Shown here: in pieces, positions 4,421-31,654 of the stretch
Layout: each line of letters opens with the position of its first letter
Position numbering within the stretch: position 1 is the first letter of the stretch
Origin: Marinomonas maritima
Lineage (GTDB): Bacteria > Pseudomonadota > Gammaproteobacteria > Pseudomonadales > Marinomonadaceae
DNA: 32,000 nucleotides
Reading direction: 5' to 3'
NCBI RefSeq assembly: GCF_024435075.2
Contig: NZ_JAMZEG020000002.1
Coordinates: forward strand, 1,063,484-1,095,483
Program-made: the position numbers and the translations under genes
The notes under the pieces: generated by a model
What the model saw: the letters and a program-made list of their open reading frames with translations, nothing else
The model's database searches: none
Told to the model about the DNA's origin: nothing

Positions 4421-4426
4421 GTTCCC

Positions 4427-5444: not shown

Positions 5445-8400
5445 TTATTTGTCTGTCATTAACCGCATAATGTGTTTTGCCCCTTCCCCCTGTAAAATAG
5501 AATAGTGATCTGCAGTAATGCCGTGATACTGGATTTGACCAAGATATGGCTGCCAACTGGCTTTAACTCTTTCATCATCTATATGCTGGGTTGCTATACA
5601 AAGTAACGTGTTAGCGGCAACCTTCCCTTGGGGCTGAAACGCACTAATCGCTGCCGCATTTTTTCGACATGCCGTTATGACCCGCTCAATGTACCATTGC
5701 GCCTGACTTCTCTCCTCCTGCTGAGATTGTCGTTTTGATAGTGGATAGAGGGTGTTAGCCACCTCTTCAGGCGAACTTTTAGGGTTAAGCTTTCCCTTCA
5801 AACGTGGGTATTGTTGAATGATTTCATCAATAAACACTTTATTATCCAAAACTGGCCCTGAGTTCTGAACGCCGCTCAGTGTAGGCGGATCAATCATGAC
5901 TAAAGGCACTGATTGCCCCAGTTTTTCCAGCATGCGCGTCATTTGCCACGCGATAAATGCGCCAAAAGACCAACCAATAATACGCACAGGTTGATAGGAT
6001 TGAATGAGATCGACATAGTGCTCCGCCATCGCTTCAACTGTCATCATCTGCGCTTGTGGTGTATTCGGTGACAGCAAGGGGTCTCTAATACCATAAATGG
6101 CTCTGCCATCAGGCATCACATCAATCCATTCCCTATAACCCATAAGATCTCCGCCAATGGGATGGATCACAATATCACAGCCTAGTGAACCATCTCCTTC
6201 TTTCAGGCATGTGATAATCCCCTCCTCCAAATGGCTTATCACATTCGCCTCACTTGATGTACTAAGTACCTCTTCGATACGGCGAATGGTCACATTTTGG
6301 GTGAGATCCGCGAGTCTCACTTTATTCGGAAATAGGACATTAATACCATCGAATAAATCCAACAGTGTTAGCGAATCCCCCCCCAAGTCGTAAAAACATT
6401 CGTCTTCATCAACCTCGTCAAATCCCAAAATATCGGTAAAAAGAGAGCTAAGATAGACAGAAGTCGACATGTCTTTTGAGTGGTTCTTCAGACTATCGGC
6501 AACGTTAGAATTGCCTGCATGCAGAGTCGAGAAAAAGCGCTTTGCATTTTGATGCGCCAGAGGTGATATCAAATACTGAGCATCACCACCGTTCACAAGA
6601 GTATCTAATAATGCAACACCTTGAGCAGGTGAAATCGAAAAGTCGATCTCCTTAACGTGTTCGGCCATTCCTGTACCTCGCCAGGTTGGCCAATTAATAC
6701 TGATAAATTGAGGACCATCTATACGCTGATTTTGCATCTTGGCGTATAAATCTAAAAAGTGATTGGCAGCACAATAATCTGTCTGTCCCGCAACCCCATG
6801 CACCGCCGACATTGAAGAACAATAAGCGATAAATTCGGGTTCCAATATCAATAGTTCCGAATCAATATTAATGGCTCCGAGAATCTTAGCGGCCATATTA
6901 GCCGTTGCCGCTCCAGGCTCCATCAATCGTATCATTCCTCCTCCCGCCGACCCTGCTGCGTGGATAATACCTGTTACCTTACCAAACTGACCCAATACTT
7001 GGTTGGCCACATGCACCATATCTTCGCGTTTTGACACATCGCAGCGTAATTGCTGTATTGATTTTCCGGGATGAAGAATGGTCTCTGTAGCCGTTCGTGA
7101 AAGTAAAATCACGCGGGCGTCTCTAGTTGCCTGCAAATGCTCAGCAATAATTTGACCTATCCCCCCCGTTCCACCCGTAATTAAGTAAACGCCATCACTA
7201 ATAAATTTTTTCGAAGGTGACAAATATTGAGGTAGCGTTTGATATTCTTTGCGCCAAACGTACCGACCTCTTACAGCAAAATGGTACGCGTCATCCGCCG
7301 GATTCTGCTCAAGTCCTTCAATAGCGTACAGTAAATGCTCAGAAGATAGCGCTGGCAGTATATCCAATACCCTATACTCAATGCGCTCAAGCTCTAATGG
7401 GATAGTTTGTGCCAACCCTAGTAACAAACCTATATTGGGATTAAGGGTTTCTTCACCCAATACATTGGCACTACCAGAAACGACGTTAATCAAGAATAAA
7501 GGTTGCCGTTGTGGTCGCTGTTCCCAAACCTGTAGCAGAGTAACAATGGATAACAAAACCTCGCCAGATCCCATATGCATTGGATTTCCCTCTGGATCTT
7601 GGTCACCAAATGTCATATTCACTATCGTCAGAGGCTGGCTAAATAAAGACAGAACTGGCAACCGCTCAATAGCCGATGAAATACCATCGATGTATTGAAC
7701 CTGATGCCCATTAGCTCGCAAACCACTTGTTACACTTTTACCCCGTTCGTGAATATCATCTATCACTAAGTACTGTTTTTGGTTAACGGAATGCCTCTGA
7801 ACGCTATAAGCCCTAACCCACTGCTCCTGCATCAACCACTGTGATTCCGGAAGCGGATCAAAAGACGCTTGCTCTGGTAACACGTCAACACTACCGAGCT
7901 CACTCTGATCACAGTGCCATTTACTAAGGTACGTTTGGCAGTTAAAGGAAAAACTGGCTGCATCCCAAGCAGGTGCCTCACTAGCGGGTCTATAATCTTC
8001 TGGCATTGAACTCAATATGGCATGTGCATTGGTTCCACCCATACCGAAACTGCTCACGCCGGCGAATCTATTCGCCCCTCTCCACGGCCTGCTGGTACTA
8101 TTGAGGTAAAACCTTGACGCACTGAAATCTATATTGGTATTGGGAGTATCAGCCCATAAGGTAGGAGGAAGAACTGAGTGATACAAAGAAAGCGCCGTGC
8201 GGATAAACCCTGTTACGCCTGCCGCCGACCCTAAGTGCCCCATCTGACTTTTGACCGATCCCAACGCGCAAGTTCCTGAAGTTTGTTGCTGGTTGCTATT
8301 TTCCGCAAATGCATCGCTTAGCGCTTTCATTTCGATAGGGTCACCCAACTCTGTGCCAGTACCGTGTGCCTCTACGTATGAAATCTGCTCACTGGTCACG

Positions 8401-14483: not shown

Positions 14484-14537
14484 TATATTATCTACTCATC
14501 AAGTCTAAACGATTAAAACGACACTCGCTGTCACAGC

Positions 14538-17500
14538 TTAATTACACAGTTCCCGCTGTATAAACTGAGCAACCGATAAGATACTGGGCGCCTCCAACAT
14601 GGTTGAGTGATCGGCGTCTACGTACTCAACCAGAAACTCACCACACGCCTTATTCTCCCAATAACCCTTCATTACCTTCAGGTAGTCTGCGGGTTTATCT
14701 TGGGTCGCTATAATCACCGCTGTTTTGGCCTTGGTATTAGCCAGCGTCATCGTTTTCATCGTATTGAGATGATGATTGTATATTCGGAAATACCGATCAA
14801 TTTGTTGGTCGTCGATGCCAGGATACATTCCGTTGTAGGTCACCAATTTTTCTCTAAACACATCACTACTGACGGGTTTAATTTTGTCCCGGATACTCTG
14901 ATCATCGCTTCCTTCTGTGTCCAACAACAGCGCCATCGAATCGATACCACGCGCTTGCAGTATTCTTGCCATCTCATAGCTGACATACCCTCCATAGGAA
15001 CAACCCACAATGGTATGTGATGTGGTCAAAAGGTGTTCTATAAGCGAGATATAGTGGTTGGCCATTGCCTGCACGTCTTCTAGGAACGGCTGGTCAGAAT
15101 CGACGCCTTGAGCCTGAATACCATACACGCCAAAGTGACTAGGCAGCTCTTTCGCCAAGGCAAGATAGGCAAAAGCAGTCCCACCACCGGGATGAATGCA
15201 AATGACATTATGAACGCCATCACCTCGTCGAAACTGGATAAGATCTTGGCTGGGATTCACTGTCGATTTAGTCGTCGTTGCATCGGAGCGTATCAGCCAA
15301 GCTAATGCTTCGATGCTGGGGTTTTTAAGCAACTCTGATACCGGTATTTGTACTGAAAGTTGTTTCTCTATTTCATGGACTACTTTAATCGCCGAAATCG
15401 ACGAGCCGCCAATTTCAAAGAAATTATCTCGAATGCCAATCTTCTTTTTCAACAAAATATCATGCCAAATTTGATACACTAGCATCTCAATATTATCTCG
15501 CGGGCTAGCGGTATTTACCTGTTTTGGCACTTGATTTTTCAATGCGGCTTCGTGCAATGCAGCATGATCAAGCTGGCCGCTAGCCGTCAGTGGTAACACC
15601 TCGAGCATGACATACTCATCGGGAGTCACAACACTTGATAGATCACGAGATAACATACCTTTTAATGACCCCCTTAGTTCATCGATTTCTGCCCGCGATA
15701 ATTTTCCGCCTTGCTCAGGCACTTTTCCTACGATAAACACCACTAGCTGCTTTTCCCCTTCCCGCGCTACCATTTCCACGGCAACTTGCTCTACTTTGGG
15801 ATGTGAAAGAACCCGTTTTCGGATAGCAGATAAGTCAATACTAACTCCTCCAATAGAGACTGAATCACCCATTCTACCAACCAGCACAAGATCGCCAGTT
15901 TTCATATATCTAACCAAATCGCCGGTACGATACAGTTTTTCGTCCGAGTTCTGATTAAAAGGATTCTCTATGAATGCTTCCGCAGATAAATCAGGTCGAT
16001 TAAGGTATCCCATTGCGAGCCCGTCACCTCCCAAATAAAGTTCGCCAACTTGACCGAAAGGAACCAATTTATTGTCAGGTGAAAGTACATAAGCACTGGT
16101 ATTAGTGATAGGTCTACCTATTGGGTAATATGACGCTAATTCAGTGATTTCAAAGCTGGTGCTGAATACTGTATTTTCCGTCGGCCCGTAAACGTACAAT
16201 AAGTGGTTTGGTTTTCCTTGAGTCAATAGGCTGTCTAGCTTAGCAGAATCGATTTCTTCTCCTCTAAAGAGCAGGGTATCCAGAGCAGCGAAAACATCGG
16301 GATTAAGCGCTAACAATTGGTTAACCTGCGCCGTCGGCATAAACATGACATCGATGGCGTGCTGTTCAATACTATGGGATAAAGCAGCGCTGTTTTTCAT
16401 TACACTGTCTGACAAAATGGCCAGCTTCGCACCGTTAAGCAGCGCCCCCCATATTTCAAACGTAGATGCATCAAGTGAAAGATCACTGATCTGCGCGATC
16501 ACTTGGTCTTGACTAAGCTTTACATAATGACTGTTTTTGACTAAGCCTAGGATTGCTCGATGCGCAACCATAACCCCCTTAGGTTTATACGTGGCGTCAG
16601 AGGTAAACATGACGCATGCAGGTTGCATTTTAATATCACAAGACTGATCGGCTATATTCTCGCTCGACAATGTGCAAGGCACTTGCTTTATGTCCACTAA
16701 CTGTACTGGATAGCACTCACCTATATCAGCATCATCACTCAGTAAATGTGTCATCTGACAGGTTTCCATCATATAACTCAACCGGCTTAGAGGAGATTTA
16801 GAATCCATGGGGACATAAGTGGCACCTAACTTAAGAATGGCCAGCATACTCACTATCATGCTCGAAGAACGTTCGCTAACTATGCCGACATACTGATTCG
16901 CTTTTACCCCCTGCAACACCAGATAACGCGCCAATTGATTGGCCTTGATATTGACGTCGTCATACGTTAATTCTGCCTGTTCATCAATTAAGGCCACACT
17001 GTCTGGGGTATGTTTAACATAATGTTCAAACCATTGATGAATTCCCATCCCCTCTACTTGGTCGTAGGTGCCATTCAATTCATTTATTTGAAAGTTCTGC
17101 TCTGCATTAGAGAGCAAGGGAACCTCTTGGACACAAGAATGTGGGGTAGCTACCATTCCTAACAAGATGTTCTTAATATGCTTTTGCAGCTCACTCAGTT
17201 GCCAGTCAGCTAAAAGACCAGGTTGAGATAACAGCTTAATTTCCAACACATCACTTTTAGCGGCGATAACCGTTAGCGCATAGTTAGTTTGTTCATTAGA
17301 CGCAAGCTCATTCATCTGCAATCTGTTTTTATTCGAAGCGGTTCCCTGTAACTCATCCACAGGGTAGTTTTCAAACACCACGATGGAATCAAATAGATTT
17401 CGACCTTTGACCTTAGATAATTGCTGAATATCTTGTAGTGGTAAATAACCATACTCTTCGAGGTCAATATGCCGCTTATGAATAGACCTAAGCCAATTTG

Positions 17501-20500: not shown

Positions 20501-23500
20501 TGTGATAGAGGCGCTCACCTGGTGTGAAGGGGCTTGGAATAAACCTTTGCGCGGTTAACTCGGGCTGGTTCAAATAACCACGTGCAATCCCCGCACCTGC
20601 GAGATAAAGATGACCGGCGACGCCAAATGGAACAAGATTCAATGCATCATCAAGCACATAGGTCTTAACCTTATCGATTCCCTGACCAATATTTCGCGGG
20701 TCATCCCCTTGTTGATACTGGTGAACCGTAGAGCACACACTATTTTCTGTGGGTCCGTATTCGTTAAACAGGCGAGTGTGAGGCACAAAGCGCTCAATCA
20801 CCTCACTTGATATGGCCTCTCCGGACAAAACAATGCGCGGTATCAAAGGGGCATTTTCTGGTAACACCAATTCAGCAAGTAACACTGGCGGTATATAGGC
20901 CACAGCGAATCGCTCCGGCTCTGCGAGATACTTCTGCAGCGTCTCTAATTGAAACCTTTTCTCTTCCGATACGATATGCAGTGGCCGACCACTGTAAAAT
21001 GAGCCCCAGATGCTGGCCACAGACGAATCGAATGAAAAATTTGTGAGATAAAGAAAGCTGGCATTTGCATAGACATCACTTGCCGATAAATCGAGATATT
21101 GGTATTGGCACTTGATATAGTTGACCACCCCAACTTGTTCAACCAACACGCCCTTAGGCCTCCCGGTCGATCCCGATGTATAAATAATATAAGCCAAATC
21201 CGACACACTTGGTTTTGACAACAGCGTCGGTTTTTCCTCTGAATAATCCTGCAAAGAACAGGCATCTACATCCAACACTAAACAGCCATTAAAGGCAGGG
21301 GGTTCGGCACTAAACAGATGTAACTGGGCCAATAATACCGGCGCTTTACTGTCCTCAAGTATATAAGTCAATCGGGACAATGGCGCCTTTGTGTCGATTG
21401 GAAGATAGGCACCACCCGCTTTTAAGATAGCCAGCATGGCAATGATCATTTGCGGCGAGCGCTCAATGAACACAGCAACAGGCACGTTAGCGCCTACCCC
21501 TAAGATGACCAAGTGATGACTGAGCTGATTGGCTTTTTTATCCAACTCTGCATAGGTCAGTCTCTCACCTTCATAGTCTAACGCCACATGATTAGGCTGA
21601 CGCTCCAATTGTCGATCAAACAAATCCACTAGTAAGGTTTGGTCGACATCCAGAATATCTCCTTTATTGGCGAACAAGACACTTGGCTGCTCTTTTTCTG
21701 GTATAAGCGCCAACGCCATGACATCAGCATTAGACTGGCTCAGCATTTGTTGTAATAAATAGTCAAAATGACGCGCCAATGCTTCGATTGTTTCTCGCAT
21801 AAACAAATCTAACGCAAAATTCCAGCTCAGTCGTAATTGTCCGTTAACCACCCGCACACCAAGTGTAAGATCAAATCGAGCCTCTACGCTCGATGGCATT
21901 TGCGCAGTAAGGCGAGCATCTCCTAAGCACAAAGAGTCACCAGAAGAGGATTGCTCCAAGACCATCATGATTTGAAAAATGGGATGGTGGTTGAACCGCC
22001 GAGGAATATTATTATCCTGTATTACTTTCTCAAATGGTAACGATTGGTGAGCAAAGTCATTTAACAAATCGGCATGGTTTTGCGACACCAATTGAGCGAA
22101 ATCAATCTCCTTTGGTAAGCGAGTCCGCAGTGCTATATTGTTCACAAAAAAACCAATAAGCCCATCAAGATCTGGCCGTTCACGGTTAGCCACTGGCGTG
22201 CCTATGACGATGTCTTTGCTACCAGAGTAGCGAGCCAGCAAGACAGTAAAGGCACTGTACAAAACAGTAAAGGGGGTTGTACCTTGCGTTTTGGCATACG
22301 CCAATACTTGATTGGATAAGTGAGGGCTTAGATCAGAATAATGCGTCTCTCCACGGTAGCTAGCGTTTGCTGGGCGAGAAAAATCAGTGGGTAAACTATG
22401 AGTCTCTGGAACATCCACCAACCTTGCCCGCCAATACTCTAAAGAGGCAAGGTGTGCCGGTGATTCTTTGCTAAATCGTTCACGCTGCCACACCGCATAA
22501 TCCGCGTATTGAAAAGCTAAAGGTTGAAGAGCTAAAGGCACTTTTTCGATAACCTTGTGACCTACTAATGCCGAGTAGCATGATTGCAACTCCTCAAACA
22601 AAATGTCCACTGACCATCCATCGATGGCAATATGATGAATGGTAAGCAACAGCACATGCTGGTTTTCACTTAGCGTTACCAGTCCGGCGCGAAAAACCGG
22701 ACCATTAGCCAAGTCAAAGGGCTGGTCAAAAAGCATTTTCTCAAAATCAGCCAGTGCAGATTTGGGGTCGGATAACGACTGTGCATCAAGATGCTGCAAA
22801 ATCCCCGTGACAGGCGGCATCACATGTTGCACTGGCTCCTGCTCTGTCATCTTATACACTGTACGTAATACATCATGACGATTGACAATAAAATCAAGAC
22901 TTTGTGATAAGGCACTCACCTCGATCTGGCCGCTTATATGGTACATAAGGGGGATGCCATAATATCGCCCATGGGTCTCGATATTATCCAATGTCCACAA
23001 TCTCTGCTGCGAGTAAGACAAGGCTACACCATTCGTCGTATCCACTTTTTTTATCGCGAAGGTCTGTGTCGTTTTTTTATCGGCACTCAGCTCATCGCAT
23101 AAACGGGCTAATCGGCGGATCGAAGGCGCCTCAAATAAGACTTTTAGCGTTAGCGTGATTGCCAACGCCCTCCCCAATCGACTGATCATCTTGATGGCTA
23201 ACAGAGAATGACCACCCAGAGTAAAGAAGTTTTGATCTATATCTGGATCATCAATAGAGAGCAGTTCAGACCATGTAGCAGCGATTACTTTTTCTGTTGC
23301 TGTTGTCGCCGAGCAATGCTCCTCGCTAATGTGTGAATACGTTGGTATCGGTAACGCGCTGCGATCAACCTTGCGATTATAGGTAAGGGGGAATTCAGCC
23401 ATAACCACAAAAAATGTGGGTGTCATATAATAGGGTAGCGCTTCTGACAAAAGAGCTCTAAGCGCCTCCACCAGCGGTTGTTCACTGTGCTGGCTTTTGA

Positions 23501-26426
23501 CATACGCCACCAGCACTTTATCACTGTATGCCGAGGGTGCCGTAGTAATAATGACCTGTTCGACCGCTTGGTGTTGACTAATACACGCTTCAATTTCACC
23601 AAGTTCAATACGAAATCCATTTATTTTCACTTGGAAATCTTTTCGACCAACAAGCTCGACAGATCCATCAGGCAACCAGCGAGCTAAATCTCCTGTTTGA
23701 TACATCCGCTGGCAATCTTTACTGTAAAACGGATCTATAGAGTACTTTTCAGCGGTTAATTCGGGTTGATTAAGATACCCTCGAGTAATGTTGGCACCGG
23801 CAATATACAACTCCCCCACCATACCGACTGGAACATGGTTTTTGTGGGAATCTAAAATATAATGACGGTTATTCGCTAAGGCGCTGCCAATATGTACACG
23901 CTCTGAAGATAAATCGGTTCTACCACCCGAACAATAAACGGTGGCTTCCGATGGCGCATATAAATTAAATAGTGAGACACTATCCGAGTGACCTAGCAAA
24001 TCCTCTCGTAGCTTTAAACTAAGGTGGTCGCCACCCGTTATCATCTTCAAACCATCATAAGGCCGCCAACCGTGATCCACTAACATCTGCCACGTTGCAG
24101 GGGTTGCTTGCATTACCGTAACAGAAAATTCTTTCTGACAAGCGATCATCAACTCTGGTGAACGCGTCTGATGCCAGTCAAAAATGGCTATCGTACTTCC
24201 CTGAATAAGCGGTAAGTAAATTTCGGCTAAATGAATATCAAAGCTTGGTGGTGTAATACACGCGACGGTATCACTAGATTTAAATTGCACCTTGTCTTGT
24301 AACGCATACAGTAGGTTGCAAACATTTCTATGCTCTATCATCACCCCTTTTGGTTCACCCGTTGAACCCGAGGTAAAGATGACATAGGCAAGATGATCAT
24401 TAGTTACCCCCAGAGATAGACTATCAATATTATCGCTGGGCAGGCGCGATAACGATGCCCACAATTCAGAATCGTCAAGACAAAACACATTTTCTATGGC
24501 AGACCCTAGCTGGCTATCTGCGTGCTCTGAGGTTAATAAAACATCCACCGAAGCGCGTTTGAGAATCTTATTCAAACGCATTGACGGTTGATTGGGATCT
24601 AAGGGTAAATAGGCCGCGCCTGCTTTTAATACAGCTAAAATACCGATAATGGCATTCACTGACCAACCATGAGCAAGACCGACACAATCATCTGGCTTTA
24701 CCCCAATGGACACGAGTTTATGCGCCAGTTGGTTGGCTTTTTCATTAAGCTGTTGATAGCTCAGGTTATAGCGCAGATCTGATCGGCCCTTCCAGATACA
24801 GGCGGTAGCGTGTGGGTGTTTCTCAACTTGTGCTTCAAACAAATCGGTAAAACGGTGCTCTTGAGGAAATACCTTGTCAGTTTGATTCCATCGCTGGATT
24901 TGCCGCTCACCCGCCGCCGACACTAAAGGTAGTGACGCAATTTCTTTATCCGGCTGAGCCAATACTTCGTGGAGCAATGTGCTGAAACTGTCACATAGCG
25001 CTTCAATTGTTTTGCCATTAAAGAGGCTAGTGGCATAAACCCAATACACTTCAAGCGTGTCGCCGCAATCATTGATATGCAATTCGAGTTCAAAATTAAT
25101 GCTATTTCTATCCACCAATAAAGGCTCTACTTCTGCATTCTCCAAGACTAAGTGATTGGTTGAATCTTCATTTAATACAAACAGCAATTGGAGTATCGGT
25201 GCATAACTGCTTTTGCGCGCATGTCCGGCGTTTTCTACAATCGTCTCAAACGGCATGTCTTGATAGCGAAACGCATCCGCCACATTTTTCTTTGCTGACT
25301 CCAGCAATTCCAAAAAAGACTGGTCTGGTTGAATATCGAGCCTAAGCGCTAAGGTGTTAACAAAAAAACCAATTAAGTTGTCAAGGCCTTGCCTGTCACG
25401 TCCCGCCACTGGTGTTCCGATCACGACATCCGGACATTCTGTCCAACGGCTGATTAACACGGAGTAAACGCTACTCAACAAGGTAAATAAGCTAGTTCCT
25501 TGTTGCTGTGCAAATGTTTTTAATCCGAGAGTGGTGGTCTTATCCAAGGTTTGTCGTAGCAAAGTACCATGAAAGTCTGGTTGTTGTGGCCGCACAAAGT
25601 CAGTGGGTAAACAATTTAATTCGTTAACCCCTAGCATTTTGTCTTTCCAGTAACGGACCGTTGCTGCCGAAGTATCCTCGTCACCTTCTTGCTGCCAACG
25701 AGCAAAATCAGCATACTGAAAATCCAATTCAGGCAGCACTGCAGGGGTATTCTGACGCGCTCCTTGCAAACAAGCATTTAACTCATTAAAAAAGCATTTG
25801 TATGACCAACCATCAAAAATCATATGGTGAAATACAAACACCAACACAGTCTCCTGCTTCGCTTCACATTCAAGCGCGGCAATGCGTATCAAAGGTGCGC
25901 GTGTTAAGTCAAAAGGAAAACTAGCCTGTTGGTGTATCCACTGTTTTTCATCAAAATTGTTGCTGCTGTCTCTTTGAATTGACAATGTAAAAGGAGCTAT
26001 CGCGCTGATAAGCTGCTTTGGGGTATCTGCTTCAACGGTAAATCCGGTGCGTAAAATCGAGTGGCGTTCAACCACCCGGTTAACGGCATGCTCAATGTTA
26101 CTTAGCTCCGCCTTACCTTTAATACGAAACCCAGTGACCATGTTGTAAAGACCTTGCTCACCGAACAAGTGCTCCAAATAGAATACACGTTGCTGGGCAT
26201 AGGTAAGCGGTGCTGCAAGCGTCGCTGGGCTAGCAACCGGACCCGCAGTAGGCCCAACATGATGGTGTGTTTCCAAAAACAGAATGACTTCCGCTTTTTT
26301 TTGTTTTAACGCGGCACTCAATTCCGAACTCAGCCCTCCTTGCTTCGTTCGATATTTTAGCGCCCCATTTTCAGTATATAAATGTACACCTTGCGATTTG
26401 GCCATCTGGATAAGTTGGTGAGCCAT
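14538..26426 (-). CDS. Non-ribosomal peptide synthetase (NRPS-2), 3962 aa: dock-C-A-T-C-A-T-E-C-A*-T-TE
   Basis: ATG at 26426 overlaps the upstream stop codon (TAATG). TAA at 14538-14540. Core motifs are listed in the domain entries below. Confidence 0.97.
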   Translation of the reverse strand: MAHQLIQMAKSQGVHLYTENGALKYRTKQGGLSSELSAALKQKKAEVILFLETHHHVGPTAGPVASPATLAAPLTYAQQRVFYLEHLFGEQGLYNMVTGFRIKGKAELSNIEHAVNRVVERHSILRTGFTVEADTPKQLISAIAPFTLSIQRDSSNNFDEKQWIHQQASFPFDLTRAPLIRIAALECEAKQETVLVFVFHHMIFDGWSYKCFFNELNACLQGARQNTPAVLPELDFQYADFARWQQEGDEDTSAATVRYWKDKMLGVNELNCLPTDFVRPQQPDFHGTLLRQTLDKTTTLGLKTFAQQQGTSLFTLLSSVYSVLISRWTECPDVVIGTPVAGRDRQGLDNLIGFFVNTLALRLDIQPDQSFLELLESAKKNVADAFRYQDMPFETIVENAGHARKSSYAPILQLLFVLNEDSTNHLVLENAEVEPLLVDRNSINFELELHINDCGDTLEVYWVYATSLFNGKTIEALCDSFSTLLHEVLAQPDKEIASLPLVSAAGERQIQRWNQTDKVFPQEHRFTDLFEAQVEKHPHATACIWKGRSDLRYNLSYQQLNEKANQLAHKLVSIGVKPDDCVGLAHGWSVNAIIGILAVLKAGAAYLPLDPNQPSMRLNKILKRASVDVLLTSEHADSQLGSAIENVFCLDDSELWASLSRLPSDNIDSLSLGVTNDHLAYVIFTSGSTGEPKGVMIEHRNVCNLLYALQDKVQFKSSDTVACITPPSFDIHLAEIYLPLIQGSTIAIFDWHQTRSPELMIACQKEFSVTVMQATPATWQMLVDHGWRPYDGLKMITGGDHLSLKLREDLLGHSDSVSLFNLYAPSEATVYCSGGRTDLSSERVHIGSALANNRHYILDSHKNHVPVGMVGELYIAGANITRGYLNQPELTAEKYSIDPFYSKDCQRMYQTGDLARWLPDGSVELVGRKDFQVKINGFRIELGEIEACISQHQAVEQVIITTAPSAYSDKVLVAYVKSQHSEQPLVEALRALLSEALPYYMTPTFFVVMAEFPLTYNRKVDRSALPIPTYSHISEEHCSATTATEKVIAATWSELLSIDDPDIDQNFFTLGGHSLLAIKMISRLGRALAITLTLKVLFEAPSIRRLARLCDELSADKKTTQTFAIKKVDTTNGVALSYSQQRLWTLDNIETHGRYYGIPLMYHISGQIEVSALSQSLDFIVNRHDVLRTVYKMTEQEPVQHVMPPVTGILQHLDAQSLSDPKSALADFEKMLFDQPFDLANGPVFRAGLVTLSENQHVLLLTIHHIAIDGWSVDILFEELQSCYSALVGHKVIEKVPLALQPLAFQYADYAVWQRERFSKESPAHLASLEYWRARLVDVPETHSLPTDFSRPANASYRGETHYSDLSPHLSNQVLAYAKTQGTTPFTVLYSAFTVLLARYSGSKDIVIGTPVANRERPDLDGLIGFFVNNIALRTRLPKEIDFAQLVSQNHADLLNDFAHQSLPFEKVIQDNNIPRRFNHHPIFQIMMVLEQSSSGDSLCLGDARLTAQMPSSVEARFDLTLGVRVVNGQLRLSWNFALDLFMRETIEALARHFDYLLQQMLSQSNADVMALALIPEKEQPSVLFANKGDILDVDQTLLVDLFDRQLERQPNHVALDYEGERLTYAELDKKANQLSHHLVILGVGANVPVAVFIERSPQMIIAMLAILKAGGAYLPIDTKAPLSRLTYILEDSKAPVLLAQLHLFSAEPPAFNGCLVLDVDACSLQDYSEEKPTLLSKPSVSDLAYIIYTSGSTGRPKGVLVEQVGVVNYIKCQYQYLDLSASDVYANASFLYLTNFSFDSSVASIWGSFYSGRPLHIVSEEKRFQLETLQKYLAEPERFAVAYIPPVLLAELVLPENAPLIPRIVLSGEAISSEVIERFVPHTRLFNEYGPTENSVCSTVHQYQQGDDPRNIGQGIDKVKTYVLDDALNLVPFGVAGHLYLAGAGIARGYLNQPELTAQRFIPSPFTPGERLYHSGDLVRRQRDGDLVYIGRSDEQIKIRGFRVELGEIEQQLNVCKEVEGALVMVQGTASGKRQLVAYVIAKQDTPALPDEELFQRLIGELSHQLPDYMTPVLWARLDAWPLTNNGKIDKKALPKPRAVSQITDHVAPSTSIEIEIAGIWSKLLKCDPVSVHDNFFALGGDSIMSMQAVSRAAKLGLHFTVKQLFDNPTIFSLTPHITMKKQEQAPQVSVTGKLPLLPIQHEFFHHGKEKNLHLFNQSILLNVPADFSFTLLEQTVTALYRRHDALRLQFTKDAESIHWQASFEPISTENQLNTVMQTRYDSKDSADLEAQCQRAQLSLNIEQGPMLKAVLLTSEDGNKLFLVIHHLVVDGVSWRIILDDLQLIYRQFKQGLPLVLEEKTASYQQWGQWLTSDPVMKAVESERPYWQKSLSDLAAVRSMPKDGAAHNKGQRGEKLLTLTLEQTQTLLKNTQQAYGTEVQELLLSALLLGLDEWRETRGQYNDDYAPLSLTLETHGRDGLDCHLEVSQTLGWFTSNYPLVLNAERGEIGDLICAVKEKIRAVPNKGMGYGVLNWFSPEQLDHREASPEILFNYFGQLDQMMEADSAFSFSSQATGEDGSFDHMQSYAIALNGRVKNGQLSFDFNFDLAAFSPAAVSDMIDAITRALQQIIEHCSSRDAVRLTPADVPLAKVKQQDLDNWSLSLSANNVRITDVYPATGMQQGLLYHSELAKEAYVTQLTVSLAQIDPSALKQAWQRVIARYDILRTAFLLANDGVRRQVVTDTTEIIWRDVNLKGQSESQQSANIEALQTQDKSCGFDATLPTLMRFTCIEMDSGQFKLIWSNHHALMDGWCLPIIWSDLSHFYQSLLTGKQSDLPAVIPYGQYIEWLACQNTQAAQLFWTESLANIESPTTLPSGFLPESECRDELSTKTTLTFSSQETQALEALAKNSQCTLNVLVQAAWGLVLSHYSGDETVLFGVTVSGRPAALPGIETMVGLFINTLPVVMKVPKGVSVTNWLRSIHKRHIDLEEYGYLPLQDIQQLSKVKGRNLFDSIVVFENYPVDELQGTASNKNRLQMNELASNEQTNYALTVIAAKSDVLEIKLLSQPGLLADWQLSELQKHIKNILLGMVATPHSCVQEVPLLSNAEQNFQINELNGTYDQVEGMGIHQWFEHYVKHTPDSVALIDEQAELTYDDVNIKANQLARYLVLQGVKANQYVGIVSERSSSMIVSMLAILKLGATYVPMDSKSPLSRLSYMMETCQMTHLLSDDADIGECYPVQLVDIKQVPCTLSSENIADQSCDIKMQPACVMFTSDATYKPKGVMVAHRAILGLVKNSHYVKLSQDQVIAQISDLSLDASTFEIWGALLNGAKLAILSDSVMKNSAALSHSIEQHAIDVMFMPTAQVNQLLALNPDVFAALDTLLFRGEEIDSAKLDSLLTQGKPNHLLYVYGPTENTVFSTSFEITELASYYPIGRPITNTSAYVLSPDNKLVPFGQVGELYLGGDGLAMGYLNRPDLSAEAFIENPFNQNSDEKLYRTGDLVRYMKTGDLVLVGRMGDSVSIGGVSIDLSAIRKRVLSHPKVEQVAVEMVAREGEKQLVVFIVGKVPEQGGKLSRAEIDELRGSLKGMLSRDLSSVVTPDEYVMLEVLPLTASGQLDHAALHEAALKNQVPKQVNTASPRDNIEMLVYQIWHDILLKKKIGIRDNFFEIGGSSISAIKVVHEIEKQLSVQIPVSELLKNPSIEALAWLIRSDATTTKSTVNPSQDLIQFRRGDGVHNVICIHPGGGTAFAYLALAKELPSHFGVYGIQAQGVDSDQPFLEDVQAMANHYISLIEHLLTTSHTIVGCSYGGYVSYEMARILQARGIDSMALLLDTEGSDDQSIRDKIKPVSSDVFREKLVTYNGMYPGIDDQQIDRYFRIYNHHLNTMKTMTLANTKAKTAVIIATQDKPADYLKVMKGYWENKACGEFLVEYVDADHSTMLEAPSILSVAQFIQRELCN
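14541..15224 (-). other. NRPS-2 C-terminal thioesterase domain
   Basis: VICIHPGGGTAFAY. GxSxG is present as GCSYG, with the Ser3810 codon at 14997-14999 verified. Asp in LLLDTE and His in DADHSTML. Confidence 0.9.
15282..15509 (-). other. NRPS-2 thiolation domain 3
   Basis: FFEIGGSSISAIKVV. The Ser3676 codon at 15399-15401 was verified. Confidence 0.88.
15552..17054 (-). other. NRPS-2 degenerate adenylation domain A*, module 5
   Basis: A1, A2, A5, A6 and A7 are intact (LTYDDVN, LKLGATYVPMD, YVYGPTENT, GELYLGGDGLAMGYL, YRTGDLVRY). A3 reads FTSDATYKPKGV (16572-16607, verified). A8 reads GRMGDSVSIGGVSIDLSAI. A9 is degraded. A10 reads SGQLD (15567-15581, verified), so the lysine is replaced by Gln. 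Confidence 0.85.
17127..18434 (-). other. NRPS-2 condensation domain 3 (DCL-like)
   Basis: The N-terminal motif VYPATGMQQGLLYHS resembles the DCL C1 motif (YPLTPMQEGMLFH). The active site is NHHALMDGWC. It lies directly after the E domain. Confidence 0.85.
18507..19859 (-). other. NRPS-2 epimerization domain
   Basis: E-domain cores PIQHEFF, HHLVVDGVSW (HHLVVDG at 19428-19448, verified), ETHGRDG, LGWFTSNYP, NKGMGYG, FNYFGQL. Confidence 0.9.
19887..20099 (-). other. NRPS-2 thiolation domain 2 (feeds the E domain)
   Basis: FFALGGDSIMSMQAV. The Ser2144 codon at 19995-19997 was verified. Confidence 0.9.
20142..21629 (-). other. NRPS-2 adenylation domain, module 4
   Basis: Cores LTYAELD, LKAGGAYLPID, YTSGSTGRPKGV, FDSS, NEYGPTENS, YHSGDLVRR, GRSDEQIKIRGFRVELGEIE, NGKIDKKAL. 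The hand-read pocket, approximately DSAYVSEVCK, matches no specificity I recognise. Confidence 0.88.
21717..23039 (-). other. NRPS-2 condensation domain 2 (LCL-like)
   Basis: HHIAIDGWS at aa 1264-1272. The C1 motif is ALSYSQQRLWTLD. Confidence 0.88.
23097..23309 (-). other. NRPS-2 thiolation domain 1
   Basis: FFTLGGHSLLAIKMI. The Ser1074 codon at 23205-23207 was verified. Confidence 0.9.
23352..24854 (-). other. NRPS-2 adenylation domain, module 3
   Basis: Cores LSYQQLN, LKAGAAYLPLD, FTSGSTGEPKGV, SFDIH, NLYAPSEAT (Gly to Ala in A5), YQTGDLARW, GRKDFQVKINGFRIELGEIE, NRKVDRSAL. The hand-read pocket DIAQIGLVYK is Gly-like (compare DILQLGLIWK). This assignment is tentative. Confidence 0.88.
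24927..26219 (-). other. NRPS-2 condensation domain 1 (LCL-like)
   Basis: HHMIFDG is encoded at 25809-25829 (verified). The C1 motif is PLTYAQQRVFYLE. Confidence 0.88.
26271..26426 (-). other. NRPS-2 N-terminal TubC-like (beta-hairpin) docking domain
   Basis: MAHQLIQMAKSQGVHLYTENGALKYRTKQGGLSSELSAALKQKKAEVILFLE matches the pattern 'G-V-x-L-x-x-E-x-G-x-L-x-Y-R-x-x-x-G-x-L-x-x-E-L-x-x-x-L-x-x-x-K-x-E-L/I' of TubC N-terminal docking domains. Confidence 0.75.
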
Positions 26427-29400
26427 TATATTTCACCCTCTTCCATATTCAGCACTAGATCCGTGGGCACCTGATCGCGAGCACTGAGAATTGCATCAAT
26501 ATAACTGGCTAAATCTCGTATCGTTGCCTGCGTAAAAAAGTCGCTCATTTTCAGTTCGACCTGCAACTCAAGCCTAATTCGACCAATCATCTTCATCGCT
26601 AGTAGTGAGTGTCCGCCAATGGAAAAGAAGTTATCCGTTACGCCAACTTGATCTCTTGTTAAACTATCTTGCCAAATAGCAACTAAGGTTTTTTCAGTTT
26701 CCGTTGCCGCTATTTCTAAAGGCGTATCTCCCGTCAAAGGAGAAAGTAATTTAGTTTTGTCTATTTTCCCCTGAGCGGTCATCGGCATGTTTGCCAATAC
26801 CACAATAGCATTAGGTCTCATATAAACGGGAAGTGACTGCTTCAGTAACCCCCTTAACTTACGAGTTAGGACCCTCTCACTGCTTTGATCCGTTTGCCAT
26901 GCCAAAACCTCTTGCTCGGAAAGCGTGATGTAAGCATAAATGGCTTCTTCTCGTACTAAAGCTATCGCCTGAGAGACCTCAGCATTTTCTAGCAAGCGCG
27001 ACGAGATCTCTCCCAATGCAACTCGATACCCTCTTACTTTCACTTCATCGTTTAGCCTACCCAAAAACTCAAGTTGACCATCAGATCGCCAACGCACCAA
27101 ATCACCCGTTTTGTAATAACGATGATTTTGTTCCTCTGGCCCGGATAGATGAGCGGCTTCTACGAAACGTTCTTCTGTTAATTCTGGTTGATTCAGGTAG
27201 CCTTTGGCTACGCCAGCCCCTCCGATATATAGTTCACCCGGAACACCAACAGGCGCTAGTTGACCATCTATCACTACTCTTGCCGTTGCATTGGCGATAG
27301 GTCGGCCAATTGGAGGAGAAATCACATTTTTCGGATCCATTTTGTAAAAAGTAGCGTCTACGGTGGTTTCTGTTGGCCCATATAAATTAAATAAGTTGGC
27401 ATGAAAATCAGCAGGGAACTGAACTTGACCTAATTTATCGCCGCCGACCAGCAAGGTATCCAATGACTGAGGCCAATTAAAATTTCTGGCACATGCGGCT
27501 TCCAACAACCCAGTTGGGAGACACGTATGGGTAACGTTAAATCGCGCCATCACGATAGATAATGTATCGAGATCATCACGTTCGTTATCTGACAATAGCA
27601 CTACCTGGCCACCCACCATCAATAACGGCCAAACCTCTGCCATAAAGGCATCAAAGCCCACATAAGCCAAACTGGTACCCACTGAGTTTTCATTCAACTT
27701 AAATTCATCTACATGCCAAAGACAGTCATTTATTAACGCTGAGTAGCCTATTTCAACCCCTTTAGGAACACCGGTTGAACCCGATGTATAGATGATATAG
27801 CCACTCTGGTTTTGATTATCCGCAACGGGCGAAAACATCGGCAGGGCTTTCGTCACCCTATGTGCGTTAGTAATATCCACGACCGATTGCGGGCAATCAA
27901 TTAAGAAGGACAGTTCAATCATGTCAGACAACACCAATTTCGACCCGCTGTCAGACAGAACAAATACCGCTCTTTGCGCCGGAAGGTCTGGTGCGATAAC
28001 CACGGCGCAAGCACCCATTTTAAACACCGCCAGCATGGCGATAACCAAAGATGGAGTTCGATCAGCAACAATAGCGACTTTGTCACCTGATTGAATATTG
28101 TTATCGGCCAATTCAACCGCTAATTGGGTGGAAGCCCCTTCGAGTTGGCCATAAGTCAAATCAAGAGGACCGCTACTGACCGCAAGTTTGTCCGGCGTAG
28201 ATAGCGCGATCGCACTAATGGCTGAAACTAAGTCTTGGCCAGAAAATTGTTGCATTGTTTCTAAGGACAGCGGCTTTCCACGACCCCAATCATTCACCAT
28301 AAGATGGGCTTGGGAAGGCGGGATAATATCGAGTTTTTCTAAGGCCAGATCACTGCATTGCTCAAAGTCATCAATTACATTAAGAAATACATTTTTAAAA
28401 CTGTCGAGAAAGGAAGCGATCTCTTCTTGGGTATAAACATCGCTGCGATACTCCCATAAGAAGTGCACCTCACCGTTTTCGTTAAAGGTTTCTCCTCTTG
28501 GCACAACTAAGCAATCGATATCAAATTTAGACGTATCCGAAATAACGGTTTCATCCTTGTGCCATTGCATCCCAGGAATAGGATCGGTATAGATCGGTGT
28601 GTCGTGAAACCCCAGTAGCACGTTAAAAAACGGATTACTGTCACCATCACGCTCTGGGTTTAACGCTTCTACCACATGAATAAAAGGCAATTCTTCATTG
28701 GATTGCGCTTCGTCTACGGTTGCCTGAGTTTGCGTTAGAAAAGCACGTAGCGAACTGGAACTATCTATCTGTTGACGCAGCACCAGCGTATTCACAAACA
28801 TGCCTAACGTGGTGTGACTGTTACTCCAATTACGATTGGCAAACGCCGACCCAAAACTCAGGTCGGTCTGCCCCGAGTAACGCCATAGACAAAGATACAA
28901 AATGGAGGAGGTGAAACTAAAGCTGGTGACGCCCAATTGTTGGCACAAAGCTTCCATCGCTTGCCATTGGGCACGGGAAAAAATGATTTTCTGATGATCT
29001 CCCGCAAAGGCTAAGGAGCGTGACTTTTTACCGAACAGCGCGACGCCATTCGGGGAGCCTGCCAACTTATTTCGCCAAAATTCAAGCTGCTGCTCTGCAT
29101 AGGACGACTTTAGCCAGTCACGCTGAGCAAACATAAAATCGGAATATTGAGCAGGAGGATTTATCTCAATTTTATAGCTGTGATCCACCTGTGCATGGTA
29201 GATTTCAATTAACTCTCGGGTAAATTCATTGGCGCTCCAACCATCGTGAATGATGTGGTGCTCCTGATGCAACAAGACATGATGTGTATTTGAGAATGCC
29301 ACTAATAGAAATTCAGCCAACGGTAATTGACTTAAATTGTCGAGGCGGGCAAGTCGGGTCTTAAAGGTTTGTTCGAGAAAATTTTCTTGCTGCGCGAGCG

Positions 29401-31654
29401 GAATATGAGATGCCTCTATGGTGTTTAAAGACATCTCAAACTTTTCCAAAACCTTTTGTACCGGCTCTCCACTATCCATAAAGAAAACCGTTCGATAAAT
29501 GTCGTGATTGGCAAATATTTGGTTAATCGCATAGGTTAAGGCGTCAACCTCTAAATGGCCTTTAAAATGCGTCGCCGCTTCAGCCAAATACGCCTTGCTA
29601 TCCGACTGACTTTGAAACATATACCACGCCACCATCTGTTGACTTGACAGTGGAAATTGGCTCGGCCTATTCTCACCACTCTCAGGCCCTTCGATTTTTA
29701 ATGGATTCTCTTCTGTTTGCTTCGACATCGCTTCAACTATCCCGACGATTGTCGGGTTTTGTCTAAATTCCTTCATATTCAAGCGACGGTTTAATCTTTT
29801 CTCCATTGTGCTCATAAAACGAATGGCAGCGATTGAATCCCCGCCAAGGGCAAAGAAATCATCGCGAATACCGATAGGTTCAAAATCGAAAATCGCTGCC
29901 CATATGTCTGCTATTTCCCGCTCTATCGCATCCCTCGCCGGCACATAAAATGAATTCCCCCTATTTGCTTTTGGGATAGGAAGCGCTTTGTGGTCAATTT
30001 TGCCATTTAGCGTTAACGGCCACTCATCTATAACGACTAATGAAGTGGGTATCATATAGTCCGGCAATAAAGACGCTAGCGTGTCGCGTACATTTTCAAC
30101 ATCAATATCAGACCCAGATTTTGGCGTCATATACGCCACGAGGTATTTGTGATCTCGACGCTTTTGGTCTAACACTAGAACGTGATCAATGCAGGTTAAT
30201 GTCGCTATCGCGCTTTCCACTTCGCCTAATTCAATTCGATGCCCTCGTATCTTTACTTGTCTATCACTTCTGCCTATAAATTCCAATTTGCCATCTTGCA
30301 TCCAACGTACGACATCACCTGTTTTATACAGTCGAGTATGACGGGCTTCACTATTAGCAAAAGGGTTATCAATAAATCGCTCTTCCGTAAGTTGTGGTCG
30401 ATTCAAATACCCCCTAGCAACACCAACACCACTAACGTGTAATTCACCCGACGAGCCCACTGGCAACAATTCACCCTGTTCACCTAACACATACAATTTA
30501 ATGTTGTTAACTGGCTTGCCAAGACAATTTATCGAAGCCTGCGAAGAGTGATCAAGATTATTGGTAACAGTGATCGTGGTTTCCGTCGGGCCATAAGAGT
30601 TAATCAGTAGACTGCCCCAAGTTTTGCTTAAAACAGATAGGCAGGCTTCTCCTCCACTGACAACACGTTTCAGTTTATGGGGTCTTCGACACTCGCCAAT
30701 TGCTGCTAGGTAACTAGGCGTTCCATGAATATGAGTGACTTCTTCCTCTACTATTAATCGATTTATGGTACTTGGATCTTTTATGTCATCTGTAGAGGGA
30801 ATCAGCAGCTTAGCGCCATTAAAAAGCGCCAAGAATAAAGTTTCTATGGAGGCATCGAAAATATAGTTGGATAACCAAATGACCGTTTCTTGCTCAGAAA
30901 AAGAATATAGTGTTGTCTGGTTTGCTACTAAATTAGTAACACCTTGGTGTTCAATTAACACCCCTTTTGGTTTACCCGTTGATCCTGATGTGTAAATAAC
31001 ATAGGCCAAGTCAGCGGCGTCATTAATGGCGTCAAGATTCTGTGTCGCGCTTTCAGTCAGGAGAGTATCGGTCGAAACAAACTTCATTTTCGATGCCTGC
31101 TCAAATGTCAGGCATGATAGCTTGTTTAGGTGGGATTCTTGAGTAAGTAGAAGCCGAGCTTGCGCATCTTCCAAGATAAACTGTAAACGCTTTTCTGGGT
31201 ATTCTGGTGACAAAGGCAAATAAGCACCACCTGCTTTCAACACAGCCAACATACTGATAACCATGTCAAAGCTTCGGTCAAAATAGAGTGGTATTAAACT
31301 ATCAGGTTGCAGCGCGCAGCCTGTCATCTCTTGATACTGGTAACGAATAACATGTGCCAGTTGATTTGCTCTACTATTAAGCTCTGCATAAGTCAGGCTA
31401 TGTCCAGCAAAGACAAGCGCTGTATTTTCCGGTGTTTTTTTAACCTGCTCTTCAAAGGCTTGAGAGATAGTTTGATACGAAAGGTTATCTGTGTCGGTAA
31501 GATTGCATGTATGGAAAAATGCGTGGGCTGCCTCGCCAGATAGCCCAAGCGTTGGCTGACTACTTTGTGCATAATTTGATCGATGATCAACATCATCTAT
31601 ATTAGTCACTGTATGACCCGACTTTAACTCCGTACCATCTATTGTTCTTTCCAT
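26426..31654 (-). CDS. Non-ribosomal peptide synthetase (NRPS-1), 1742 aa: A-T-C-A-T
   Basis: ATG at 31654, with GGAG/GGGTGG purine runs upstream. Stop TAA at 26426-28. Core motifs are listed in the domain entries below. Confidence 0.97.
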   Translation of the reverse strand: MERTIDGTELKSGHTVTNIDDVDHRSNYAQSSQPTLGLSGEAAHAFFHTCNLTDTDNLSYQTISQAFEEQVKKTPENTALVFAGHSLTYAELNSRANQLAHVIRYQYQEMTGCALQPDSLIPLYFDRSFDMVISMLAVLKAGGAYLPLSPEYPEKRLQFILEDAQARLLLTQESHLNKLSCLTFEQASKMKFVSTDTLLTESATQNLDAINDAADLAYVIYTSGSTGKPKGVLIEHQGVTNLVANQTTLYSFSEQETVIWLSNYIFDASIETLFLALFNGAKLLIPSTDDIKDPSTINRLIVEEEVTHIHGTPSYLAAIGECRRPHKLKRVVSGGEACLSVLSKTWGSLLINSYGPTETTITVTNNLDHSSQASINCLGKPVNNIKLYVLGEQGELLPVGSSGELHVSGVGVARGYLNRPQLTEERFIDNPFANSEARHTRLYKTGDVVRWMQDGKLEFIGRSDRQVKIRGHRIELGEVESAIATLTCIDHVLVLDQKRRDHKYLVAYMTPKSGSDIDVENVRDTLASLLPDYMIPTSLVVIDEWPLTLNGKIDHKALPIPKANRGNSFYVPARDAIEREIADIWAAIFDFEPIGIRDDFFALGGDSIAAIRFMSTMEKRLNRRLNMKEFRQNPTIVGIVEAMSKQTEENPLKIEGPESGENRPSQFPLSSQQMVAWYMFQSQSDSKAYLAEAATHFKGHLEVDALTYAINQIFANHDIYRTVFFMDSGEPVQKVLEKFEMSLNTIEASHIPLAQQENFLEQTFKTRLARLDNLSQLPLAEFLLVAFSNTHHVLLHQEHHIIHDGWSANEFTRELIEIYHAQVDHSYKIEINPPAQYSDFMFAQRDWLKSSYAEQQLEFWRNKLAGSPNGVALFGKKSRSLAFAGDHQKIIFSRAQWQAMEALCQQLGVTSFSFTSSILYLCLWRYSGQTDLSFGSAFANRNWSNSHTTLGMFVNTLVLRQQIDSSSSLRAFLTQTQATVDEAQSNEELPFIHVVEALNPERDGDSNPFFNVLLGFHDTPIYTDPIPGMQWHKDETVISDTSKFDIDCLVVPRGETFNENGEVHFLWEYRSDVYTQEEIASFLDSFKNVFLNVIDDFEQCSDLALEKLDIIPPSQAHLMVNDWGRGKPLSLETMQQFSGQDLVSAISAIALSTPDKLAVSSGPLDLTYGQLEGASTQLAVELADNNIQSGDKVAIVADRTPSLVIAMLAVFKMGACAVVIAPDLPAQRAVFVLSDSGSKLVLSDMIELSFLIDCPQSVVDITNAHRVTKALPMFSPVADNQNQSGYIIYTSGSTGVPKGVEIGYSALINDCLWHVDEFKLNENSVGTSLAYVGFDAFMAEVWPLLMVGGQVVLLSDNERDDLDTLSIVMARFNVTHTCLPTGLLEAACARNFNWPQSLDTLLVGGDKLGQVQFPADFHANLFNLYGPTETTVDATFYKMDPKNVISPPIGRPIANATARVVIDGQLAPVGVPGELYIGGAGVAKGYLNQPELTEERFVEAAHLSGPEEQNHRYYKTGDLVRWRSDGQLEFLGRLNDEVKVRGYRVALGEISSRLLENAEVSQAIALVREEAIYAYITLSEQEVLAWQTDQSSERVLTRKLRGLLKQSLPVYMRPNAIVVLANMPMTAQGKIDKTKLLSPLTGDTPLEIAATETEKTLVAIWQDSLTRDQVGVTDNFFSIGGHSLLAMKMIGRIRLELQVELKMSDFFTQATIRDLASYIDAILSARDQVPTDLVLNMEEGEI
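26495..26707 (-). other. NRPS-1 thiolation domain 2
   Basis: FFSIGGHSLLAMKMI. The Ser1683 codon at 26606-26608 was verified. Confidence 0.9.
26735..28237 (-). other. NRPS-1 adenylation domain, module 2
   Basis: Cores LTYGQLE, FKMGACAVVIAPD (atypical A2), YTSGSTGVPKGV, FDAF, NLYGPTETT, YKTGDLVRW, GRLNDEVKVRGYRVALGEI, QGKIDKTKL. The hand-read pocket, approximately DAACLGLVDK, matches no specificity I recognise. Confidence 0.88.
28340..29662 (-). other. NRPS-1 condensation domain (LCL-like)
   Basis: HHIIHDG is encoded at 29240-29260 (verified). The C1-like motif is PLSSQQMVAWYMFQ. Confidence 0.88.
29720..29932 (-). other. NRPS-1 thiolation (PCP) domain 1
   Basis: FFALGGDSIAAIRF. The Ser607 codon at 29834-29836 was verified as TCA. 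Confidence 0.9.
29975..31477 (-). other. NRPS-1 adenylation domain, module 1 (initiation)
   Basis: Cores LTYAELN, LKAGGAYLPL, YTSGSTGKPKGV, FDAS, NSYGPTETT, YKTGDVVRW, GRSDRQVKIRGHRIELGEVE, NGKIDHKAL. The hand-extracted pocket DAEHVGSITK resembles Lys codes such as DAESIGSVCK. This assignment is tentative. Confidence 0.9.

Follow-up and report, generated by a model that had tools for sequence, protein, structure and literature searches.

The window analysed here, a 32,000-nucleotide stretch of Marinomonas maritima strain RSW2 (contig NZ_JAMZEG020000002.1, positions 1,063,484 to 1,095,483; identified by exact-sequence look-up, proteins MDE8603454-62), carries three large genes, g1, g2 and g3, that encode nonribosomal peptide synthetase (NRPS) modules and one polyketide synthase (PKS) module without an acyltransferase (AT) domain. 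We consider it probable that they belong to an intact, horizontally acquired orphan cluster of about 32 kb and seven genes, which is organized as two assembly lines and includes an amide-forming step by an ATP-grasp ligase.

A first-pass annotation of the window, made from its letters and open reading frames (ORFs), had described three co-oriented megasynthase genes. The three ORFs were found at exactly the same positions, all on the minus strand, and whole-protein and chunked Pfam scans reproduced the three domain strings (Table 1). The stop codon of g1 and the start codon of g2 overlap by 1 nt (TAATG) and the junction sequence leaves a gap of 54 nt between g2 and g3, so that g1-g2-g3 looks like a single operon.

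Although transcribed in one direction, the three proteins are not built as one line. Both g1 and g3 begin with an adenylation (A) domain, both g2 and g3 end in a thioesterase (TE), and an N-terminal docking domain followed by a condensation (C) domain occurs in g2 only. The first A domain of g3 begins at residue 23 with no C or docking domain before it, and the TE of g2 is intact with no docking tail behind it. A terminal TE on g2, followed by a protein that starts with A and has no C domain, argues for two separately terminated lines, one of five modules formed by g1 and g2 and one of three modules formed by g3 alone. The C-terminal tail of g1 presumably meets the TubC-type docking domain of g2. 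The earlier tally of seven aminoacyl modules and one ketide module, read as a single line, must therefore be revised, since there are two TE-ended lines and the seven A domains include a degenerate one. The absence of a starter C domain, as the same annotation had it, holds for g1 and g3, each of which opens with A, and the N-terminal lipo-initiation C domain that marks lipopeptide NRPSs was not found.

The motifs of modular type I NRPSs (HHxxxDG in C domains, A1–A10 in A domains and GGxS in carrier (T) domains) are present, with the full A-domain set in six of the seven A domains. The carrier serine is kept in all eight carrier domains, both TEs keep GxSxG and the histidine, and the ketosynthase (KS) of g3 has its Cys-His-His residues (motifs CSSS, HGTGT and MGH). 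In g1, 66 aa without a domain precede the first A domain, 23 aa follow the last carrier, and the C domain resembles ordinary LCL-type domains. The epimerization (E) domain of g2 scores 120 bits against TIGR01720 (cut-off 74) and carries the motifs HHLVVDGVSW and ETHGRD. The C domain behind it, C3, scores 230–290 bits against the D-donor C domains of McyB, PvdL, SrfA-C, BacC (bacitracin synthase 3) and TycB, which we take to be of the DCL type, compared with 102 bits or less in the remaining C-domain comparisons. Because C3 matches D-donor domains and E lies above its model cut-off, the single E/DCL pair proposed at first pass holds.

A competent A domain is not present in every elongation module, as the third A domain of g2, hereafter A*, is degenerate. 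It spans the full Pfam profile, yet motifs A3, A8, A9 and A10 are lost (A3 reads TSDATYKPKG, A8 reads GRMGDSVSIGG, A9 is missing and A10 reads SGQLDH, with K517Q), which agrees with its earlier description as an aberrant A domain. These defects are common to the orthologues of M. primoryensis and of a Psychromonadaceae metagenome-assembled genome (MAG), among which the A3 loop and the pocket residues vary, the pocket drifting between DAFFLRVVFQ, DAFFLKVAFQ and DAFFLKVTFQ. The ratio of nonsynonymous to synonymous substitution rates (dN/dS) of A* is 0.18, that is, the domain is still under purifying selection, and the carrier behind it, T3, is intact (GGSS). A dead A domain with conserved defects in front of an intact carrier suggests that T3 is probably loaded in trans. 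The likeliest loader would be the Val-like first A domain of g3, whose pocket, beginning DAFF, is nearest to that of A*.

The PKS module of g3 is non-canonical in another respect. Pfam scans found neither an AT domain (PF00698) nor a dehydratase (DH) domain in g3, in which the KS (residues 1743–2169) is followed by a 260-aa linker and then by the ketoreductase (KR), acyl carrier protein (ACP) and TE. The nearest solved KS structures are from AT-less or trans-AT systems (7zma, 4wky, ClbC, PksJ/L and OzmH), and many of the top database matches of the KS region likewise lack PF00698. Judged from these best structure and database matches rather than from a phylogeny, the g3 KS looks trans-AT-like. 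A protein search with the KS-to-TE part returned generic multi-KS PKSs only, at no more than 46% identity; it omitted the cluster's own 90% relatives and seems blind to very long proteins. No free-standing AT gene was found among the accessory genes at comparison loci L005, L006, L001, L015 and L016, and the malonyl unit would be supplied by a trans-AT or by FabD, from a gene outside the cluster.

Pocket codes (Table 1) were obtained by aligning the A domains by hand to a fragment of GrsA, and they agree with the tentative Lys-like, Gly-like (twice) and Val-like classes assigned earlier. The two Gly-like domains, g3-A2 and g2-A1, are 53% identical, compared with about 30% for other pairs of A domains. 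The six codes other than that of A* are fixed in the orthologues or vary only among V, I and L. Codes are constant to the same degree in relatives whose A domains share no more than 50–58% identity, which argues for a real substrate constraint; for the Vibrio and metagenome relatives, conservation of the codes was noted at 45–58% domain identity. The relative in Vibrio penaeicida (g1-like gene at L015 4612–9822) has the same codes at the positions of g1-A2 and g2-A1; its starter pocket, however, reads DSLIAVGICK instead of DAEHVGSITK, so that the products of the family probably vary at residue 1. On these assignments, line 1 would yield a pentapeptide with a free N-terminus, in the order Lys-like, X, Gly-like, D-X, X. 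Line 2 would join a (Val/Ile-like)-(Gly-like) dipeptide to one malonate unit and reduce it, and the resulting C-terminus would be a γ-amino-β-hydroxy acid of the statine or γ-amino-β-hydroxybutyric acid (GABOB) type.

The window ends 346 bp upstream of g1. An exact look-up of g1 in an assembly index gave no match, and the upstream neighbours were read in the orthologous locus of M. primoryensis (L005, L006). There, a divergently transcribed 441-aa protein, a major facilitator superfamily (MFS) transporter, a Cupin_8/JmjC-type protein and an Sfp/EntD-type phosphopantetheinyl transferase (PPTase) are encoded upstream of g1, followed by fragments of an IS3-type insertion sequence (IS) and then higBA. 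The same four accessory genes flank the homologous cluster in the Psychromonadaceae MAG (L001), and nucleotide homology between Marinomonas and the MAG covers exactly the block that starts with the PPTase gene and ends at the stop codon of g3. This block indicates a unit of seven genes and about 32 kb that runs past the end of the window, and the description of a three-gene cluster has to be given up. In V. penaeicida and on metagenome contigs, a homologue of the 441-aa protein lies beside g1- and g2-like, MFS and Cupin_8 genes; the PPTase was seen only at the M. primoryensis and MAG loci.

The 441-aa protein is the least familiar member of this unit. It has only seven homologues in a word index. 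In a profile search of 1.84 billion sequences, close representatives over the full length number about a dozen, within a wider family of about 1700; the close ones occur next to NRPS genes. Its own match, to the ATP-grasp family R2K_3, is weak and below the cut-off, and no Pfam or NCBIfam cut-off is passed. Remote relatives reach the cut-offs of CP_ATPgrasp_2 and ATPgrasp_YheCD, with GSP_synth and GSH-S_ATP matched only below theirs. A Foldseek search with a low-confidence model (pLDDT 57) returned ATP-grasp ligases throughout, led by eukaryotic-type glutathione synthetases, YgiC and GspS, a trend that agrees with the other matches but is no proof. Taken together, the weak match of the protein itself, its remote relatives and the fold matches make a circularly permuted amide ligase of the ATP-grasp superfamily its probable identity. 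After release by the TEs, such a ligase would form an additional amide bond. Our preferred guess, although less likely than not, is that it joins the two released chains; alternatively, it would attach an amine or polyamine as a cap to one of the released carboxylates. Of the other accessory proteins, the Cupin_8 enzyme would hydroxylate a residue and the MFS pump would export the product. For the laxaphycin cluster, a role of Cupin_8 proteins in the hydroxylation of residues has been proposed (PMC7524897).

Comparison with other genomes places the cluster in a variable region. The same core genes occur at eight other Marinomonas loci that encode an identical PtsN, and the NRPS genes are absent from all eight. 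After darP they carry instead a Transposase_20 fragment, higBA, a TacA/GNAT pair, P2-like tail remnants or Thoeris-like genes. Nucleotide synteny with the other Marinomonas loci stops at about position 5050. The 480-bp spacer between darP and g3 contains a gene remnant and a repeat that mark the insertion site. The remnant is the end of a GNAT/TacT-type toxin gene, intact versions of which (167 aa, paired with TacA) lie at L009 16046–16549 and L011 13765–14268, and homology to the Psychromonadaceae cluster begins at position 5448; judged from these alignments, the remnant marks the cluster's insertion boundary. At the other end, the M. primoryensis sequence becomes homologous to the cluster-less genomes again at higA, immediately past the IS3 fragments. 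The eight cluster-less loci, the remnant, the repeat and the resumption at higA together argue for an accessory insertion in a hypervariable spot, the adjacency to rpoN being incidental. The earlier statement that the cluster lies beside the core rpoN operon without signs of mobility is thus accurate inside the window, where no tRNA gene was found over the whole length and no IS or integrase at the junction; it does not extend to the locus at large, given the hypervariable island, the truncated toxin gene and the IS3 fragments of M. primoryensis.

Further copies of the roughly 60-nt repeat lie at L013 14449–14508, L011 13648–13715 and 18707–18766, L009 17009–17064 and L007 12976–13028, with 90% mean column identity over six copies, often near P2-like gpD or tail remnants. 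The repeat could represent a phage att site or mark the boundary of a cassette; a structured site like the attC of integrons was considered and dropped, as no significant fold was found. Another unit, of 350–400 bp and with ORFs of about 119 aa, occurs in many copies beyond higBA in M. primoryensis-type genomes (L005 1049–1438 and 1853–2169; at least five in L012 between 15600 and 20150).

Related clusters were found in M. primoryensis, the Psychromonadaceae MAG, V. penaeicida and metagenomes. In the MAG, the unit has a GC content of 47–49% and its flank 37–39%, a difference that fits horizontal transfer. The whole cluster could be read in three lineages, and in each of them g3 is co-inherited with g1 and g2; a scan of metagenomes with a g3 alignment gave only unrelated matches, at 22–35% identity. 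Relative to the MAG orthologues, at a synonymous divergence (dS) of about 0.6, dN/dS is 0.13–0.17 for g1, g2 and g3, and likewise for their individual domains (0.18 for A*). Such low values indicate that the cluster is maintained and not decaying.

Two side observations concern the MAG. Its g3 homologue has an extra 227 aa between C and A2 (L001 25163–25843, residues 1074–1300) that correspond to a C domain's C-terminal half and share 31% identity with residues 257–477 of g2-C1; the insert resembles a scar left by recombination at a point of C-A exchange. After the cluster (L001 31989–36353), at a much lower GC of 37–39%, the MAG carries genes for a TauD-family dioxygenase, DUF6875, a methyltransferase and an aminotransferase, which are absent from Marinomonas and could either provide additional tailoring or have nothing to do with the cluster.

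Several points weigh against the proposed seven-gene, two-line cluster with its ATP-grasp step. Its expression and its product are predictions from the genes. Both the trans-loading of T3 and the origin of the malonyl unit are conjectural, and the four accessory genes of RSW2 are read across from orthologous loci. The substrate calls are tentative, resting on codes aligned by hand to a GrsA fragment, and a literature search found no match for the six pocket codes. The model of the 441-aa protein is of low confidence (pLDDT 57, TM about 0.27). Finally, the chain-joining role presupposes g3 in the Vibrio and metagenome relatives and falls if they lack it.

The alternative that survives best, although we doubt it, is that the lines make two independent products that are never joined, a tetra- or pentapeptide from line 1 and a dipeptidyl-hydroxy acid from line 2. 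The ATP-grasp enzyme would then amidate one of the acids with an amine or polyamine, supply a precursor or confer self-resistance. The typical reaction of ATP-grasp enzymes of the GspS/YgiC type links a small amine to the carboxylate of a peptide, and it is this fold family that the 441-aa protein matches. Each line is complete from its start to its TE, and the Vibrio and metagenome loci show g1, g2, ATP-grasp, MFS and Cupin_8 genes, g3 not being seen in the stretches read. However, g3 is predicted to be co-transcribed 54 nt behind g2 and is co-inherited in three lineages, and the dead A* of line 1 points to some cross-talk with line 2.

Rather unlikely, in our estimation, is an undescribed convergent logic, in which the two TE-released chains are stitched together or capped with a polyamine by a dedicated, circularly permuted ATP-grasp ligase to give a new cationic peptide-ketide scaffold spread horizontally among marine Gammaproteobacteria. 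In the boldest version, the ligase would replace the dead A* by loading its carrier through an acyl phosphate.

Marine gammaproteobacterial NRPS clusters often make siderophores. According to the literature, other Marinomonas make fimsbactins or carry turnerbactin-like clusters, and a 2-oxoglutarate-type oxygenase could make a β-hydroxy chelating residue. A siderophore is nevertheless improbable here: the seven-gene unit and the flanks read contain no genes for a TonB-dependent receptor, periplasmic binding or ABC uptake, dihydroxybenzoate (DHB) or salicylate formation, or N-hydroxylation, and none of the pocket codes resembles those for Asp, His, Ser or hydroxy-Orn.

The reading implied at first pass, a colinear eight-module line g1-g2-g3 that makes a heptapeptide plus one ketide, would fit three adjacent, co-oriented genes in an apparent operon; we find it very doubtful, because the TE of g2 is intact and has no docking tail and g3 offers no chain-accepting domain before its A domain. 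Least credible of all is a decaying, non-functional relic of horizontal transfer, to which one degenerate A domain, the missing AT and a junk-rich variable region beside truncated genes might point, against 26 kb of uninterrupted reading frames, all other catalytic motifs intact, the low dN/dS at the divergence given above and the pocket codes kept in Vibrio and metagenome relatives.

In the core flank, rpoN is followed directly by ptsN and npr (832–3054), with neither hpf nor rapZ between, and the order is identical in all eight related Marinomonas loci. Upstream of g1, a 75-codon ORF was considered as an MbtH-like gene and dropped, since a Pfam search gave no family match and conservation is poor, the M. 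primoryensis counterpart carrying many substitutions. It is probably not a gene, the region being rather a leader or promoter.

Table 1. Features of the window, with the pocket code and tentative substrate class of each A domain
Feature	Position	Strand	Description	Basis
lptB-rpoN-ptsN-npr-mgtE-darP	31..4963	plus	core flank, outside cluster	Pfam, ORFs
lptB	31-756	plus		
rpoN	832-2307	plus		
ptsN	2325-2774	plus		
npr/HPr	2785-3054	plus		
mgtE	3038-4420	plus		
darP/yjgA	4427-4963	plus		
~60-nt repeat	5159..5218	plus	one copy; recurs in variable region after darP in other Marinomonas loci	
Terminator-like hairpin	5238..5270	minus	14 bp stem then T-rich tail; 175 nt downstream of g3 stop; strong	
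GNAT/TacT-type toxin remnant	5278..5440	minus	frameshifted 3' end, last ~55 codons; abuts g3 stop	blastn, tblastn
g3	5445..14483	minus	3012 aa, WP_275565070; A-T-C-A-T-KS-KR-ACP-TE; self-contained line 2	Pfam
g3 TE	5454-6170	minus		Pfam
g3 ACP	6267-6452	minus		Pfam
g3 KR	6678-7193	minus		Pfam
g3 linker	7194-7976	minus		Pfam
g3 KS	7977-9257	minus		Pfam
g3 T2	9339-9530	minus		Pfam
g3 A2	9654-11114	minus	DITQIGLVYK; Gly-like	Pfam
g3 C	11313-12590	minus		Pfam
g3 T1	12681-12839	minus		Pfam
g3 A1	12954-14417	minus	DAFFVGGTFK; Val/Ile-like	Pfam
g2	14538..26426	minus	3962 aa, WP_275565071; TubC_N dock-C-A-T-C-A-T-E-C(DCL)-A*-T-TE; finishes line 1	Pfam
g2 TE	14559-15206	minus		Pfam
g2 T3	15303-15479	minus		Pfam
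g2 A* (A3)	15579-17033	minus	DAFFLRVVFQ; degenerate	Pfam
g2 C3	17082-18416	minus	DCL	Pfam
g2 E	18507-19850	minus		TIGR01720
g2 T2	19902-20075	minus		Pfam
g2 A2	20160-21620	minus	DSAYVSEVCK; no substrate class read	Pfam
g2 C2	21687-23027	minus		Pfam
g2 T1	23100-23288	minus		Pfam
g2 A1	23370-24839	minus	DIAQIGLVYK; Gly-like	Pfam
g2 C1	24882-26213	minus		Pfam
g2 dock	26271-26420	minus		Pfam
g1	26426..31654	minus	1742 aa, WP_255895946; NRPS A-T-C-A-T; starts line 1	ORF list, Pfam, exact protein look-up
g1 T2	26498-26689	minus		Pfam
g1 A2	26765-28201	minus	DAACLGLVDK; no substrate class read	Pfam
g1 C	28358-29656	minus		Pfam
g1 T1	29729-29917	minus		Pfam
g1 A1	29999-31456	minus	DAEHVGSITK; Lys-like	Pfam
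g1 upstream region	31773..32000	minus	75-codon ORF starting exactly at window edge	

NRPS-PKS hybrids to which no product has been assigned exist in very large numbers, and we provisionally regard the RSW2 cluster as an orphan of familiar NRPS-PKS type with some non-canonical features. The earlier suggestion that it matches no characterized pathway also stands, provisionally: none of the product-specific NCBIfam NRPS models (AusA, SolG, MxcG and EntF) reaches its cut-off, the database names of the source proteins are all generic, and a literature search linked no product to the cluster. The Marinomonas chemistry found in that search consists of ribosomally synthesized and post-translationally modified peptides (RiPPs) and siderophores only; the papers on a Marinomonas 'pyoverdine' and on fimsbactin concern other clusters, and marinomonasin is a RiPP. 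A new product would be the first metabolite of NRPS-PKS type to be linked to this conserved family of clusters, which is shared by Marinomonas, Vibrio and Psychromonadaceae. The cluster also raises testable questions about non-colinear logic, with a dead A domain under selection, an AT-less module without an AT in the cluster, two TEs and an NRPS-linked, GspS-like ATP-grasp ligase.

Among known systems, the 441-aa protein is closest to the clade of GspS, YgiC and eukaryotic glutathione synthetase in fold and in the Pfam matches of its remote homologues, and this clade implies ATP-dependent formation of an amide bond between a peptide carboxylate and an amine; unlike the named members, it passes no family cut-off itself and is linked to NRPS genes. 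For the megasynthases, the best curated model is PRK05691 (NCBIfam, 'non-ribosomal peptide synthase/polyketide synthase'), with which g2 is colinear over model positions 675–3656, E-DCL pair included, although its 2450 bits are far under the 4090-bit cut-off.

The syrbactin synthetases (SylC/SylD and GlbF/GlbC) have, on a single protein, two NRPS modules followed by a PKS module and a TE, and a basic residue of the Lys type takes part. Their PKS module has a cis AT and a DH domain, and their line opens with a C domain for N-acylation. In contrast, g3 has no cis AT, DH or starting C domain, and a second, five-module line is present here.

A close architectural parallel is offered by the thalassospiramide lines (Thalassospira ttc and Tistrella ttm), in which A-less modules are loaded in trans and trans-AT logic is used (bioRxiv 10.1101/560987). 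Like the RSW2 cluster, they are marine proteobacterial hybrids in which an AT-less KS-KR-ACP module extends an aminoacyl-T to a statine-like unit, and in which a module without a working A domain is served by another A domain, as we infer here for T3. The thalassospiramide lines have a lipid-accepting starter C domain, a single TE, a 12-membered ring product, and DH and methyltransferase (MT) domains, whereas the RSW2 cluster has two TE-ended lines and no starter C, DH or MT domain. Its A domain is also retained but dead, not absent, and the likeness drawn here is one of architecture.

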